IMG/VR virus record: IMGVR_UViG_3300038393_003183
Span: 4,656 to 68,655 of that record
Strand: one strand, 5' to 3'
Source of the DNA: a virus
Lineage: Duplodnaviria; Caudoviricetes
Length of the DNA stretch: 64,000 nt
Below, piece by piece: positions 6,923 to 12,925 of this stretch; position 1 is the stretch's first letter, and each line of letters opens with the position of its first letter. The notes under the pieces are model-generated. The model searched no databases, was not told the DNA's origin, and worked only from the letters and a program-made list of their open reading frames with translations. Position numbers and translations under genes: made by a program.

Positions 6923-7160
6923 CAGCCTCCAGTTGCGCGCCGCAGTCGCGCACGAACTGGCCGAGCTGCACCAGCTACGCGCCACGCTCCCGCTGCGCCA
7001 GTTGATCACGCTGCTGGACACGCTGATCGACTCGCATCTGGAGGACCTGACCACCATCGACCCCGACCACCTGCGGTTCAAGCAGGGCGCGATCCGGCAG
7101 CTCCAGTGCCTGCGTGCGGTCCTGCTGGAAGACCATCCCAACCTGTCACCGAAAGCCTGA
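6915..7160 (+). CDS. Small head-assembly protein (Bbp19-like)
   Basis: 81-aa helical protein with a KQGAIRQL motif, in the portal-to-scaffold position typical of this phage type. Confidence 0.5.
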   Translation: MRDSLQLRAAVAHELAELHQLRATLPLRQLITLLDTLIDSHLEDLTTIDPDHLRFKQGAIRQLQCLRAVLLEDHPNLSPKA

Positions 7161-7162
7161 GC

Positions 7163-7633
7163 ATGCCGTTCGCCTCCCATACCGACCGAATCCGCTCAAC
7201 CCCGGCCACGCGGCGCCGGGACGACAACGTGCGCGCCATCATCACCGCGCTGCGCGAGCGCCACCTGATGCGCGACGAGATCGCAGCCCTGATCAACATG
7301 GGCCGCTCGGGTGCCAACAAGTACGTGGCGATGCTGCGCGAGGCGGGCGTGATCGAGATCGAGCGGTACGTGGCCAAGACGGTTTGGGCCACCGGCAAGC
7401 CGGTGTACCGCCTGAACCCCGACACGGCGCTGGTCGACGGCTACCTGCGCTCGCTCGACACCGGCACCGTCAGCGTGACCAAGCCGGTGCGCGAGATCGA
7501 CCACACGCGCCATGTCCACCTGACCAGCGACGACTGCAACTACCACATCAAGCTGGCCTCGGTGCGCATCCCGCCGCCCGACCCGCTGCTGGCCGCGTTC
7601 TTCGGGCTGGCCAAGCCGGAGCAGCACGCGTGA
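7163..7633 (+). CDS. Winged helix-turn-helix DNA-binding protein
   Basis: MRDEIAALINMGRSGANKYVAMLREAGVIEIER...KPVYRL has wHTH geometry. Confidence 0.7.
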   Translation: MPFASHTDRIRSTPATRRRDDNVRAIITALRERHLMRDEIAALINMGRSGANKYVAMLREAGVIEIERYVAKTVWATGKPVYRLNPDTALVDGYLRSLDTGTVSVTKPVREIDHTRHVHLTSDDCNYHIKLASVRIPPPDPLLAAFFGLAKPEQHA

Positions 7634-9951
7634 GCGGGCTGACCTTCGGCAGCGTGTGCAGCGGCATCGAGGCCGCCAGCGTGGCGTGGCACCCGCTGGG
7701 GTGGCGCGCGGCGTGGCTGGCCGAGATCGAGCCATTCCCGTCGGCGGTGCTGGCGCACCACTACCCCGACGTGCCCAATCTGGGCGACATGACCAGGATC
7801 GCCGCCATGGTGCGCGCCGGGGAGGTCGCCGCGCCCGACGTGCTGGTGGGCGGCACCCCGTGCCAAGCCTTCTCTGTTGCCGGCCTGCGCCGCTCGCTTG
7901 ATGACGCGCGCGGCCAGCTTTCCCTCGCTTTCGTGGACCTCGCCAATGCCATCGATGCAGCTCGATCTGTTCGCGGTGAACCCGCCGCCATCATCGTCTG
8001 GGAGAACGTCCCAGGAGTTCTTACTACAGCCGACAATGCGTTCGGCTGCTTCCTTGCTGGCCTTGCCGGAGAAGACGAGGCACTTGTCCCGCCAGGGAAA
8101 AAATGGGCGAACGCTGGTTGTGTGTATGGACCCCAGAGAACAGTCGCATGGCGGATCACGGACGCCCAATTCTTCGGAGTGGCCCAACGGCGCCGCCGTG
8201 TGTTCGTTGTCGCAAGTGCTAGAGAGGACTTCGATCCCGGCGAGGTACTTCTTGAGTTCGACGGCGTGCGCCGGGATACTGCGCCGAGCCGACAAGCGGG
8301 CCAAGACCCTGCCGCCGGCCCTGCGCATGGCGCTCGAATCGGTAGCCATTGGGATGGCGAGTTCCCCCACCCGACACTGAACCAGTCCACCACCGGCGCG
8401 AGCGGCATCGGCATGTCCAATCAGGCGCTGTTCAGCCAGCGCGGCGCGTACCTGGTCGATCCCGCGCTGGCCGACCGCTGGCCCGCCGACCTCGCCTCGA
8501 CCCTGAACGCGTCGTTCGGCTCCAAGCTCGGGCTGGAGGACCAGCACATCCGCAGCGGCGCGCCGCTGTTCGTGCTGGGCACCCCGCCCGTGGCGGGCAC
8601 GCTCGACACGCAGTGCGGTGGCCAGAAGCTGACCCACCAGACGATCCTCAACGGCCATGTCATCGGCACCATCACGGCGCGCATGTTCAACGCGCTCGGC
8701 GCGCGCGACGTGGAGGAGGGTGCGCTGCTGGCCTGCGTCACGCAGGGTGGCGGCTTCGGCCAGTTCAGGGAAGCGGAAGTCAGCAGCACGCTGCGTGCCG
8801 ACGGCGGCGATCAGGGCGGCGGCAGCGAGTCGCTGGCAGCCTACGCGTTCCAGCCGCGCATCGCGCGCAACGGCCGCGGCGACATGGGCGATCTGGTCAA
8901 CGCCCTGACGGCGCAGGCCGGGGAGACGGGCAAGGGCGATGCCGCGCCGTGCGTGGCCTACGCGATCCAGGCGGGCGCTACCCGCGTCAACCCGGCAAGC
9001 GGCCCCGACGGCGTGGGCGTGCAGGAAGCCATCGCCTACACGCTAGAGGCCCGTGCCGAGGTGCAGGCGGTCGCGTTTTCCTGCAAGGACAGCGGCGCCG
9101 ACGCCTCGGTCGAACTGGCCCCGACGCTGCGCGCCATGGGCTACAGCGGCAGCCACGCCAACGGCGGTGGCCAAATGGCCGTGTGCGTCACGGGCGAGAT
9201 CACCCACACGCTCAAGGCCGACGGCTTCGACGCCAGCGAGGACGGCACGGGCCGCGGCCAGCCGATCGTGGCGGCGTTTGCGGAGAACAGCCGCGCCGAG
9301 CTGCGGCTGGAAGGCGGCGACGGCTCGCGCACGGGGGCGCTCAGCACGGGCGGCGGCAAGCCGGGGCAGGGCGTGCCGATGGTGTTCACGGGCGACGGCA
9401 TCGTGGCCGACCCGCTCAGCGCCAACGAGGCCAAGACCTACACCCATGAGGGTTCGACGTTCCGGCTGCACAACTGCATCGGGCAGCCCGTCACCGCGAC
9501 CAGCTCGGGGCGCGGCTGGTGGTCGCAGTCCGAGGTCGGTGCCACGCTGCGCGCCCAGGACAGCCCGATCAAGGCCGACACGCTGGCGGCGACCAGCATG
9601 GCGGTGCGGCGCCTGACGCCGCGGGAGTGCGAGCGGCTTCAAGCATTCCCTGACGACTATACGCTGATCCCGTGGACCGAATACCAGCGCATGCAGAAGC
9701 GCGCGGCCAAGCACGGCACGTCGTTCGAGGAGGAGCTGCGCAAGCATGGCAAGCCCCTGCGCGGCACGGCCACGCCGGCCGAATGCCCGGACGGCCCGCG
9801 CTACAAGGCGCTCGGCAACTCCATGTGCGTCAACAACATGCGCTGGATCGGCCAGCGAATAATGCTGGGCCTGTCAAGGCCGCAGCCGATCCCCGACAGC
9901 CCGCCGCGAGCGGGCTTTTTTACGCCCGCCGAGGAGGTTGTGACCGCATGA
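7630..9951 (+). CDS. DNA cytosine-C5 methyltransferase with greatly expanded variable region
   Basis: GTG start coupled to the upstream stop. Motif I SVCSGIEA, IV GGTPCQAFS, VI WENVPG, VIII QRRRRVF, IX RRLTPRECERLQAFP, X YKALGNS. Confidence 0.93.
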   Translation: MSGLTFGSVCSGIEAASVAWHPLGWRAAWLAEIEPFPSAVLAHHYPDVPNLGDMTRIAAMVRAGEVAAPDVLVGGTPCQAFSVAGLRRSLDDARGQLSLAFVDLANAIDAARSVRGEPAAIIVWENVPGVLTTADNAFGCFLAGLAGEDEALVPPGKKWANAGCVYGPQRTVAWRITDAQFFGVAQRRRRVFVVASAREDFDPGEVLLEFDGVRRDTAPSRQAGQDPAAGPAHGARIGSHWDGEFPHPTLNQSTTGASGIGMSNQALFSQRGAYLVDPALADRWPADLASTLNASFGSKLGLEDQHIRSGAPLFVLGTPPVAGTLDTQCGGQKLTHQTILNGHVIGTITARMFNALGARDVEEGALLACVTQGGGFGQFREAEVSSTLRADGGDQGGGSESLAAYAFQPRIARNGRGDMGDLVNALTAQAGETGKGDAAPCVAYAIQAGATRVNPASGPDGVGVQEAIAYTLEARAEVQAVAFSCKDSGADASVELAPTLRAMGYSGSHANGGGQMAVCVTGEITHTLKADGFDASEDGTGRGQPIVAAFAENSRAELRLEGGDGSRTGALSTGGGKPGQGVPMVFTGDGIVADPLSANEAKTYTHEGSTFRLHNCIGQPVTATSSGRGWWSQSEVGATLRAQDSPIKADTLAATSMAVRRLTPRECERLQAFPDDYTLIPWTEYQRMQKRAAKHGTSFEEELRKHGKPLRGTATPAECPDGPRYKALGNSMCVNNMRWIGQRIMLGLSRPQPIPDSPPRAGFFTPAEEVVTA
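7946..8380 (+). CDS. Nested +1-frame gene: putative accessory (beta-type) polypeptide of the C5 methyltransferase
   Basis: Open +1 frame wholly inside the MTase gene, encoding EWPNGAAVCSLSQVLE...YFLSSTACAGILRRADKRAKTLPPALRMAL. Main-frame codon bias is visibly degraded over this interval. Start is 7946 or 7955. Confidence 0.65.
   Translation: MPSMQLDLFAVNPPPSSSGRTSQEFLLQPTMRSAASLLALPEKTRHLSRQGKNGRTLVVCMDPREQSHGGSRTPNSSEWPNGAAVCSLSQVLERTSIPARYFLSSTACAGILRRADKRAKTLPPALRMALESVAIGMASSPTRH
9898..9921 (+). terminator. Intrinsic terminator-like hairpin inside the 3' end of the C5 MTase gene
   Basis: AGCCCGC-cgcga-GCGGGCT followed by TTTTT. Confidence 0.6.
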
Positions 9952-11201
9952 GCGGCACGATCCTGTTTGGCGACTGCCGCGCCAGCCTGCACCAGATGGC
10001 GGCTGCCGGCGTCAAGGTGCAGATGTGCGTCACCAGCCCGCCGTACTACGGATTGCGCGACTACGGCCACGACGGGCAGATCGGCCTCGAGGAGACGCCC
10101 GAGCAGTACATCGCCCATCTGGTCGAGGTGTTCCGCGCCGTGCGCGAGGTGCTGGCCGACGACGGCACGCTGTGGGTCAACATCGGGGACAGCTACGCGC
10201 AGGCGGGCGGACGCGGCGAGCAGGGGGCCACCAGCGCGCGCCGGGGCCGCAGCAACGTGGCGGCGCAGGAAAAGCGCCAGAGCATGAAGCCGCCCATGGG
10301 CTGCAAGCCGAAGGACCTGATCGGCATCCCGTGGATGCTGGCGTTCGCGCTGCGCGCCGACGGCTGGCACCTGCGCCAGGACATCATCTGGCACAAGCCC
10401 AACCCGATGCCCGAGAGCGTCACCGACCGCTGCACCAAGGCCCACGAATACCTGTTCCTGCTGTCGAAAGGCCCGCGCTACTTCTACGACCATGAGGCGG
10501 TCAAGGAGGAGGCGGTCGGCAACCCGTCGGGCAACAAGGAACGCCGCGCCCGCCCTGACGCCGAGGCGCTGCGCGAGCTGGGATTCCAGCGCGGCGCGCA
10601 GGCGGGATACATCCCATGGCTGGGCGACGAGAAGCGCAATCGGCGCTCGGTCTGGAAGATCGCCACCAAGCCGTACGCCGGCGCGCACTTCGCGGTGTTC
10701 CCGCGCGAACTGGTCGAGCCGTGCATCGAGGCGGGCACCAGCGAGCGGGGCCACTGCCCGCAGTGCGGCGCGCGCTGGACCCGCGTGGTACGCACCCAGC
10801 GCACGCTGCAAGGCGGCAGCGCGCGCGCCGGGCGCTCGCTGGATGAGATCAACGCCAGCGGCAAGCACCTGAACGGAGGCAGCAGCGGCAACCGCACCCT
10901 CAAGGGCGGGCCGGTACTGGCCAGCACGACGCTGGGCTGGCAGCCCGGCTGCGCCTGCGGCACCGAGCCGGTGCCCGATGTGGTGCTGGACCCGTTCATG
11001 GGCAGCGGCACCACCGCCGAGGCGGCAATCCTGCTCGGGCGCGGATACGCCGGCTGCGAACTGAACGAGAACTACAAGGCGCTACAGGACGCGCGCATCG
11101 CCGCCGCCCGCACCGCCGTGGCCACGCCGCCGCTGCTGGAGGACATCGACGTGCGCCAGATGACGATCTTCGACACCGCAACCAGTGAGGAATGCCCATG
11201 A
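9948..11201 (+). CDS. Beta-class amino-methyltransferase (SPPY, N4-cytosine type) with Cys-rich insert
   Basis: TSPPYY catalytic motif precedes DPFMGSGTT (SAM binding); IIWHKPNPMPE; insert HCPQC...CAC. Confidence 0.9.
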   Translation: MSGTILFGDCRASLHQMAAAGVKVQMCVTSPPYYGLRDYGHDGQIGLEETPEQYIAHLVEVFRAVREVLADDGTLWVNIGDSYAQAGGRGEQGATSARRGRSNVAAQEKRQSMKPPMGCKPKDLIGIPWMLAFALRADGWHLRQDIIWHKPNPMPESVTDRCTKAHEYLFLLSKGPRYFYDHEAVKEEAVGNPSGNKERRARPDAEALRELGFQRGAQAGYIPWLGDEKRNRRSVWKIATKPYAGAHFAVFPRELVEPCIEAGTSERGHCPQCGARWTRVVRTQRTLQGGSARAGRSLDEINASGKHLNGGSSGNRTLKGGPVLASTTLGWQPGCACGTEPVPDVVLDPFMGSGTTAEAAILLGRGYAGCELNENYKALQDARIAAARTAVATPPLLEDIDVRQMTIFDTATSEECP

Positions 11202-11611: not shown

Positions 11612-11727
11612 CGCACAGCGACACCGACCTGCTGAAATTCTGGCTGCTGGTGGTCGCCATGCACGCGTTCAGGCTCGGCATCTGCTTCTGGGAAGTGCGG
11701 CGCAAGGGGAACGACGATGAGTCCTGA
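11608..11727 (+). CDS. Small membrane peptide (39 aa)
   Basis: MTHSDTDLLKFWLLVVAMHAFRLGICFWEVRRKGNDDES; coupled to both neighbours. Confidence 0.45.
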   Translation: MTHSDTDLLKFWLLVVAMHAFRLGICFWEVRRKGNDDES

Positions 11728-12925
11728 GCCGTTCACCTTGCACCTGGGCGACTGCGTCGAGGTGATGCGCGCCATGCCCGAGAACAGCATCGACGCCATC
11801 GTGACCGACCCCCCGTATGAGCTGGGGTTCATGGGCAAGGGCTGGGACGCCAGCGGCATCGCCTACAGCGTGGCCATGTGGCGCGAGGCGCTGCGCGTGC
11901 TCAAGCCGGGCGGGCACCTGCTGGCGTTCGGCGGCAGCCGCACCTACCACCGCATGGCGTGCGCGGTCGAGGATGCGGGCTTCGAGATCCGCGACCAGAT
12001 CATGTGGGTGTACGGCGACGGCATGCCCAAGTCGCGCAACATCGCCAAATACGACCTCAAGGCGCAGGCCGCGCAGGCGTGGGCAGGCTTTGGCACGGCG
12101 CTGAAACCGGCCCACGAACCGATCGTCATGGCGCGCAAGCCGCTGGCCGGGACGGTGGCGCAGAACGTGCTGGCATGGGGCACCGGGGTGCTGGACATTG
12201 ACGGCTGCCGGGTGCCGGTGGATGACGCCAGCTACGCCCGCAACTGCTCGGGCGACCGCGGCCATGGCGGCACGCGCAGCGCCGCACAGGAGGGCGCGAC
12301 CGACCTGCACACGGGCGGCGGCAGCGCCGCAGCCGGGCGCTGGCCCGCGAACCTGATCCACGACGGCAGCGCCGAGGTGGTGGCGCTGTTCCCGGCGCAG
12401 GCCGGCGCGGTCGCCCCAGTTCACACCCGACGCGCCGACAAGTTCCGCACCGCCTACGGCGCGTTCGCCGGCAACGTGGACGAGCAGGGCAGCACGTTCC
12501 AGGGCGACAGCGGCAGCGCAGCGCGCTTCTTCTACTGCCCCAAGGCGACCCGCAGGGACCGCAACGAGGGCTGCGAGCACATGGAGAAAAAGCCGCTGCT
12601 GTGGTCTTCCGGCACCAAGAACCCCGGCTCGTTTCAGGCCGAGGGCACCGACAAGAGCAGCCAGAACTTCCACCCGACCGTCAAGCCGACCGACCTGTGC
12701 GCCTATCTAGTGCGGCTGGTGGCGCGCCGGGGCGCGGTGGTCTACGACCCGTTCATGGGTTCCGGCTCGACCGGCAAGGCGTGCATGCGCGAGGGCGTGC
12801 GCTTCGTCGGCTCGGAGCTTGCGCCCGAATACATGGCCATCGCGCAGGCCCGCATCGCGCGCGAGTATGCGCGCATCGGCGCGCTAGAGCCAGCGCCCGT
12901 GCCGCAGCTCGACCTGTTCGCCTGA
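11717..12925 (+). CDS. Beta-class amino-methyltransferase (DPPY, N6-adenine type)
   Basis: VTDPPY, HPTVKP and DPFMGSGST motifs. Confidence 0.9.
   Translation: MSPEPFTLHLGDCVEVMRAMPENSIDAIVTDPPYELGFMGKGWDASGIAYSVAMWREALRVLKPGGHLLAFGGSRTYHRMACAVEDAGFEIRDQIMWVYGDGMPKSRNIAKYDLKAQAAQAWAGFGTALKPAHEPIVMARKPLAGTVAQNVLAWGTGVLDIDGCRVPVDDASYARNCSGDRGHGGTRSAAQEGATDLHTGGGSAAAGRWPANLIHDGSAEVVALFPAQAGAVAPVHTRRADKFRTAYGAFAGNVDEQGSTFQGDSGSAARFFYCPKATRRDRNEGCEHMEKKPLLWSSGTKNPGSFQAEGTDKSSQNFHPTVKPTDLCAYLVRLVARRGAVVYDPFMGSGSTGKACMREGVRFVGSELAPEYMAIAQARIAREYARIGALEPAPVPQLDLFA

Follow-up and report, generated by a model that had tools for sequence, protein, structure and literature searches.

A conserved gene overprinted on a phage C5 DNA methyltransferase gene and its probable role as a module of the enzyme

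Introduction

Can DNA that encodes the catalytic motifs of a phage C5 DNA methyltransferase also encode a second protein in another frame and, if so, what would that protein contribute to the enzyme? The question is raised by a 64-kb stretch of DNA (64,000 nucleotides, nt; hereafter the window), part of the 68.7-kb virus record IMGVR_UViG_3300038393_003183 (Duplodnaviria; Caudoviricetes), where the methyltransferase open reading frame (ORF) contains a shorter ORF in the +1 frame. We analyzed this nested ORF by comparison with its relatives. On comparative sequence evidence that we regard as decisive, it is a real gene under selection, overprinted within that of the methyltransferase, and phages of many bacterial phyla have kept it. 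We consider it probable that the gene is translated and that it encodes a module of the phage C5 methyltransferase, acting in trans. In the following, A denotes main-frame motifs I–VIII, B the nested +1 product, and C the variable region, or target-recognition domain (TRD), together with motifs IX–X.

Results

The nested gene in the window

The main ORF matches PF00145 in Pfam (E=1.5e-29) and phrog_116 in PHROGs (E=8.5e-81). The C5 motifs I, IV, VI, VIII, IX and X are all present, in order, in the main frame; the first four fall inside the first 200 residues and are followed by a long TL-repeat variable region and then by IX and X. An earlier note on this DNA, made from its letters and ORFs, had stated that the main ORF keeps motif IX, which is indeed found there, as is motif X. 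The features of the locus are:

7630–9951, + strand: C5 DNA methyltransferase main ORF (A–C), 773 residues, starting with GTG at 7630
7645–7680, + strand: motif I, main frame
7849–7875, + strand: motif IV (PCQ), main frame
7933–7948, + strand: start region of B, with GTGGAC (family consensus GTGGAG), 7–8 nt and then the conserved ATG; Shine-Dalgarno (SD)-like site
7946–8380, + strand: nested gene B, 144 residues plus TGA (8378–8380), +1 frame, wholly inside the main ORF
7958–7972, + strand: QLDLF, B residues 5–9, a motif like those that bind the beta clamp, in the predicted disordered N-terminus
7973–8164, + strand: B1, a Ser/Pro/Thr/Gly-rich predicted disordered linker, B residues 10–73, overprinting main-frame motifs VI–VII
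7996–8019, + strand: motif VI (ENV), main frame
8095–8106, + strand: GGGAAAAAATGG homopolymer run in the A/B overlap, the frame-switch point of several database chimeras
8165–8335, + strand: B2, the conserved core, B residues 74–130, with three confident predicted helices
8185–8214, + strand: motif VIII (QxRxR), main frame
9607–9663, + strand: motif IX (RRLTPRECERLQAFP), main frame
9814–9861, + strand: motif X, main frame

The +1 frame is open from a TTG at 7877, and the start kept by relatives is the ATG at 7946. From there the ORF runs for 144 codons and overlaps motifs VI and VIII, in close agreement with the 142–145 codons over motifs VI–VIII described in the earlier note, and the peptides quoted there are encoded by this frame. 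The collapse of main-frame codon bias reported over the ORF is confirmed and sharply bounded: the GC content at third codon positions of the main frame is 0.91 upstream (7630–7945), 0.53 and 0.62 inside B (7946–8165 and 8166–8380, respectively) and 0.92 downstream (8381–9951), so that the break in codon bias matches the boundaries of B. By synonymous-codon shuffling of the window alone, the +1 frame would be open by chance with P=0.077, which is only mildly unlikely, and the case for B therefore rests on comparison with relatives.

The start of B is closely kept. The A, T and G of 7946–7948 are each retained in 106–110 of ~110 aligned sequences, and the ATG is preserved because the overlapping main-frame Asp codon is GAT (106/110 sequences). 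A GGAG-like site lies 7–8 nt 5' of the ATG, and 74 of the 132 unique B genes have an SD-like motif.

Conservation of B as coding sequence in relatives

A tblastn search with the last 76 residues of B as query returned 146 phage records. The first 82 loci comprised 80 IMG/VR loci chosen by main-frame similarity only, and a codon alignment was built from 114 unique homologous loci spanning 41–70% GC; the locus sets are phylogenetically non-independent. All of the first 82 loci encode the B peptide in the +1 frame, with 64–82% identity. In each of the 80 loci picked on the main frame the +1 ORF is open for ~140 codons, and B begins M-Q-L-T-M-F-D-L-F in these loci, often a few codons 3' of a +1 stop.

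Interruption of the +1 frame in close homologues, which the earlier note had named as evidence against the gene, was not observed beyond a single stop, in locus L022; in the other 113 of the 114 unique loci, the +1 frame is free of internal stops across 130 codons (main-frame codons 111–240). On either side of codons 110–240 of A, +1 stops number in the hundreds, and the +2 frame has stops throughout. Synonymous shuffling gives a median per-locus probability of 0.043 for the open +1 frame.

The dual-frame conservation called for in the same note is also seen in the substitution pattern. We calculated synonymous-codon identity as the share of sequence pairs with the same main-frame residue that use the same codon; it is 0.56–0.91 inside B versus 0.37–0.50 outside. 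The +1 amino-acid identity tops at 0.65–0.87, and over codons 211–240 it exceeds that of the main frame (0.87/0.60/0.43 versus 0.65/0.36/0.22). Outside B, main-frame position 3 has the highest nucleotide diversity (0.58), whereas over codons 206–240 this diversity is 0.45 at main-frame position 1, which is position 3 of B, versus 0.28 at main-frame position 3; codon periodicity follows B over this stretch because the diversity peak moves to the third position of B. In the motif VIII stretch all three codon positions are constrained.

The pattern holds at a distance: across loci from Verrucomicrobiota, Actinomycetota, Bacteroidota and Alphaproteobacteria, the identity of A to that of the window is 34–54%, versus 55–65% for the B core. 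B2 sits in the +1 frame relative to the annotated methyltransferase coding sequence (CDS) in P1 (dmt), Pseudomonas phage TC7, Enterobacter phage CobraSix, Mycobacterium phage Omega, Streptococcus phage Javan261 and Akkermansia phage Chantilly.

Organization and predicted structure of B

B combines a disordered N-terminal part with a conserved helical core. B1 lacks +1 stops and is under moderate synonymous constraint (0.56–0.66, against the 0.37–0.50 baseline). The invariant and near-invariant columns of B all lie in B2, which reads E-W-P ... S-L-S-Q-V-L-E ... Y-F-L-S ... A-C-x-G-I-L-R-R-A ... LPP.L..AL, and the tail past residue 130 is unconserved. An AlphaFold model of B built from a 77-sequence alignment agrees with this division: residues 1–85 are disordered, with a predicted local distance difference test score (pLDDT) of 43–55, and residues 88–136 form three helices with pLDDT 91–95. 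Models of B alone and of a natural B–C fusion (P0145) are confident only for the three-helix C-terminal element and the IX–X helices; the N-terminus and the TRD are of low confidence, and the predicted template modelling score is 0.30–0.33.

Scans of Pfam, PHROGs and NCBIfam returned zero family matches to B, and a B profile returned zero matches among PDB sequences at E<=10. A structural search (VIA-align, wide) with the B–C model retrieved generic helical hairpins only (Z<=4.1), and a search of the ESM Atlas retrieved only unnamed 'hypothetical protein' clusters, mostly viral. Against 1.84 billion cluster representatives (50% identity), the B profile gave 4,834 matches at E<=0.001, 3,828 of them at E<=1e-10. 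Among the database proteins matching B, 360 are near its length and 82 are longer; those with a name are called hypothetical.

B2 resembles the segment that follows motif VIII in ordinary enzymes

We compared the B profile, using hhalign, with 30 ordinary single-chain C5 methyltransferases from Pseudomonadota genomes, which are mutually related. In 10 of the 11 best matches (E 0.001–0.08), B residues ~68–116 fall 10–45 residues after Q-x-R-x-R; in one example, E-F-P-K-P ... L-A-D-I-L-E ... V-P-E-S-Y-F-L-S aligns with E-W-P-N-G ... L-S-Q-V-L-E ... I-P-A-R-Y-F-L-S of B. The sole match to E. coli Dcm is at the same place after motif VIII, but with a non-significant E of 0.1–0.2 for both the single sequence and a 91-member profile. 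The stretch of B around YFLS..AC matches motif IX with E ~0.4–0.5 only.

The main frame of the window lacks, after motif VIII, an equivalent of the stretch found there in ordinary enzymes. The E-W-P ... S-L-S-Q-V-L-E part of B (8177–8224) and main-frame motif VIII are encoded by the same DNA; the overlap with motif VIII takes in the first 16 residues of B2. These comparisons lend moderate support to the proposal that B2 is the segment normally found after motif VIII, which joins the catalytic domain to the small domain.

Connectivity of the three modules

In ~51 of the 82 longer database matches, B comes first and is followed in frame by TRD modules and motifs IX–X (for example, P0159 from Pseudomonas abyssi). 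At the genome level, L083 (P. abyssi) and L087 and L141 (both Mannheimia) have a separate A ORF that ends ~75 residues past motif VIII and overlaps a B–C ORF out of frame by ~450–520 nt. Among unique loci, in a sample biased toward loci like that of the window, 123 have A–C with nested B, three have A plus B–C, and ~13 have three separate ORFs. In P0124, B2 is joined directly to the W-P-A-[DE]-L-A-S-T-L module that comes after the overlap in the main frame of the window; judged by this junction, a single insertion or deletion (indel) just past B2 sets whether C joins A or B.

Three loci illustrate the fully split state. In metagenome-assembled Collinsella genomes (L158, L160), A, B and C are separate ORFs that use all three forward frames, and in Mycobacterium phage Omega (L161), A (gene 127) and C (gene 128) share a frame with a stop between them and B is nested in +1. 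A colinear A–B–C enzyme, with B2 in frame after motif VIII, was sought among the longer database matches and not found: QxRxR precedes B in 0 of the 82.

The variable region of the window (8368–9560) contains many TL-type modules, such as STLRADGG, PTLRAMGY, HTLKADGF and GATLRAQ, which reappear in relatives and in B–C fusions in varying number and order; this would fit a TRD array that is modular and possibly multispecific. The annotation of Faecalibacterium phage FP_Toutatis (L163, 1123–2534) divides the methyltransferase between two CDSs. The first of them begins past motif I, has no motif VIII and continues in frame into B2; the other carries the TRD, IX and X and then a motif-I-like LGSLFDGIGGFP at its end. 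Circular permutation or rearrangement of the enzyme could account for this order, as could an artefact of assembly.

Directly 5' of the methyltransferase, at 7106–7633, is an ORF for a 175-residue winged-helix protein (HTH_24-like, weak Pfam matches), the stop of which overlaps the methyltransferase start in GTGA; its product may regulate the methyltransferase cassette.

Discussion

A methyltransferase probably built from two chains

We propose that the family is built from three modules: A (motifs I–VIII), B, and C (target-recognition modules plus IX and X), where B would itself consist of an N-terminal short motif, a disordered linker of ~65 residues and a helical core of ~60 residues. A, B and C cannot form one chain, because B overlaps A on the DNA. 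In the window, in P1 dmt and in most relatives, A–C is one polypeptide, whereas B would be made separately, from its own ATG, and would dock onto A–C to complete the link from the catalytic to the small domain. The methyltransferase is thus probably an enzyme of two chains, as M.EcoHK31I is. A one-base shift just past B2 attaches C to B instead in some relatives, giving A plus B–C, as in M.AquI. The earlier note had described B as an overprinted subunit supplying the small-domain linker in trans; the selected overprinted gene and the likeness to the linker segment both stand, to which natural fusions with the TRD, IX and X can now be added, and it is translation of B, its docking in trans and its need for activity that we infer.

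Several observations weigh against this proposal: (i) B carries a stop in L022, and in some Pseudomonas loci (L134–L138) a deletion truncates B2 and the main ORF is still open; (ii) the matches to the post-VIII segment are individually weak (best E 0.001; ~0.1 for the Dcm profile), and the 30 enzymes are not independent; (iii) motif VIII of the main frame is followed by a short stretch, FDP..VLLE, which might in part take the place of B2; and (iv) the model of the B–C fusion is uninformative on contacts. As to the Pseudomonas genomes, L134–L138 and L142 encode short variants of ~320 residues in which the variable region is almost wholly deleted and B2 is truncated (ACAGILRRAE becoming ALAGIARRDG...); these may be decaying copies.

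Alternative explanations

The alternative that survives best is that B is real and has its main job elsewhere, either as an adaptor or inhibitor that binds the sliding clamp via QLDLF, or as a regulator of methyltransferase activity or expression, with the helical C-terminus serving as an anchor. B begins M-P-S-M-Q-L-D-L-F, and pLDDT is below 50 at residues 1–13. Among consensus peptides for the bacterial beta clamp, which have the form Q-aliphatic-x-[L/M]-[F/L] and occur in disordered termini, QLDLF is the strongest (PMC11139829). B, with its putative clamp-binding motif in a predicted disordered terminus, resembles in this the clamp partners Hda, Pol II and Pol IV (PMC11139829). Six-frame translation of the window yields only two instances of QL[DS]LF, one in B and the other at the extreme C-terminus of a neighboring DPPY methyltransferase. 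B of Mycobacterium phage Omega starts M-T-F-D-Q-L-D-L-F, and the pattern Q-aliphatic-x-[LMFI]-[FWLY] occurs within the first 14 residues of 96 of 132 unique B proteins (many of them close kin), versus 0 of 168 control windows in B1.

Four points count against such a role. The motif is absent from the P1, CobraSix, Mannheimia and Streptococcus versions of B, and only 13 of 56 cluster representatives match the pattern; the M-Q-L of B is partly forced by the conserved main-frame D-A-I-D; B2, and not the N-terminus, is the most conserved part; and the B–C fusions link B to the enzyme itself. We therefore regard an adaptor or regulator as an unlikely main function, and prefer the assignment of B as an enzyme module. 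The two ideas can be combined: B could be an obligatory third methyltransferase module and also a replisome tether, with QLDLF on the host clamp, the linker as a leash and the core in the enzyme, a combination that we put forward tentatively. The beta-clamp review contains 0 occurrences of a DNA methyltransferase as clamp partner (PMC11139829), and our literature search found nothing relevant on a link between methyltransferases and the clamp.

The neighboring methyltransferases have motifs of the same type. The DPPY N6/N4 methyltransferase (11717–12925) ends ...PVPQLDLFA*, with a perfect clamp-binding consensus at 12905–12919, and an SPPY methyltransferase (9672–11201) carries QMTIF (11157–11171) 13 residues from its end; a terminal clamp-type motif is present on all three methyltransferase units of the cassette. 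In phage TC7 (L002), the gene at 432–1106 is annotated as a putative DNA polymerase III beta subunit (sliding clamp); it lies two genes upstream of the methyltransferase.

A second alternative is that the functional product arises by frameshifting, with ribosomes either leaving the main frame for that of B at the G/A run, or leaving the B frame for the main one close to the end of B, which would give B–C in this phage as well. Roughly 19 database proteins are main-frame-to-B chimeras, four of which (P0163, P0176, P0179 and P0187) switch at a run homologous to GGGAAAAAATGG, of the GGGAAAAAA type, and the others elsewhere; moreover, natural B–C fusions show that a B–C chain is functional in other members of the family. 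The chimeras lack motif VIII and are mostly singletons, however, and their junctions are spread over ~100 codons, a scatter that makes programmed frameshifting unlikely. The chimeras are probably indel mutations or errors and not the product of a programmed site; that several switch at the run homologous to 8095–8106 suggests an indel hotspot there. Further, the B ATG is near-invariant and +1 stops cluster just upstream of it, which fits independent initiation of B, a conserved slippery heptamer is absent from the end of B, and the tail of B is unconserved. Frameshifting as the source of the functional product is accordingly improbable.

Finally, although the open frame is only mildly improbable in the window alone and spurious long ORFs abound in high-GC genomes, the explanation that the +1 ORF is untranslated and conserved through main-frame constraint or a nucleic-acid-level element is strongly disfavoured by the comparative sequence data, in which the frame stays open across the whole GC range, +1 identity rises above that of the main frame, periodicity moves to that of B, the B sequence is similar to a canonical stretch of protein and in-frame fusions to the C half occur.

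Implications

The nested gene, ~430 nt on the same strand as the gene that contains it, is missing from the annotation of a very large phage and prophage cytosine methyltransferase family, to which P1 dmt belongs; our literature search retrieved no description of a gene overlapping the cytosine methyltransferase gene of P1 or of other phages. Should B prove to be a subunit, these enzymes are misdescribed whenever they are cloned or annotated as the main ORF only, and B would need to be considered in assays of specificity and activity, in REBASE-style predictions and in phage engineering against restriction barriers. The three interchangeable connectivities (A–C plus B; A plus B–C; A, B and C apart) constitute a natural experiment on the assembly of split enzymes and on the evolution of overlapping genes.

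The terminal QLDLF motifs make it a directly testable idea that phage methyltransferases ride the sliding clamp. If B were both module and tether, phage DNA would be methylated during replication, in a phage or bacterial counterpart of DNMT1–PCNA coupling that the DPPY methyltransferase, with its C-terminal QLDLFA, would share, and motif VIII and its usual follow-on, two ancient canonical segments, would share one stretch of 45 nt, read in two frames.

Comparison with known systems

Ordinary single-chain C5 methyltransferases (PF00145, Dcm and the 30 enzymes compared here) have motifs I, IV, VI, VIII, IX and X, as does the main frame of the window, and B2 matches their [EF]-[FW]-P ... L..[IV]LE ... 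[IV]P..Y[FY]LS stretch, 10–45 residues past motif VIII. Unlike in those enzymes, the stretch is in the +1 frame in the window and begins two codons before motif VIII, and the two canonical segments use the same 45 nt.

Among two-polypeptide enzymes, M.AquI (CYCGRG) is a C5 methyltransferase in which alpha carries motifs I–VIII and beta the rest (PMC3404938). By this description, its partition is that of the relatives with A plus B–C (L083, L087 and L141) and of the ~51 database B–C fusions, although the two genes of L083, L087 and L141, unlike those of M.AquI, overlap out of frame by the ~450–520 nt given above. The window differs from M.AquI in that A and C are fused in one ORF and only B is separate.

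M.EcoHK31I (E. coli HK31, YGGCCR) is an alpha/beta C5 methyltransferase in which beta is nested in the alpha gene in another frame (work of Lee, Kam and Shaw, 1995, as summarized in PMC2836561 and PMC3404938). By the published description, its small chain lies, like B, wholly within the gene of the large subunit, on the same strand and in a different frame. The N-terminal 42–67 residues of its beta chain are dispensable (PMC2836561), which parallels the disordered first ~70 residues and conserved C-terminal core of B. Beta is reported to supply motif IX, which alpha lacks (PMC2836561, PMC3404938), whereas in the window it is the main frame that encodes motif IX, and the segment carried by B is the post-VIII one. 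M.EcoHK31I is, furthermore, a single restriction-modification enzyme, whereas the B family is very large, mostly phage-borne and found in several connectivities. What sets the family apart from the known two-polypeptide C5 enzymes is thus the supply of another segment, its very large, phage-borne membership, its interchangeable connectivity and a possible clamp motif.

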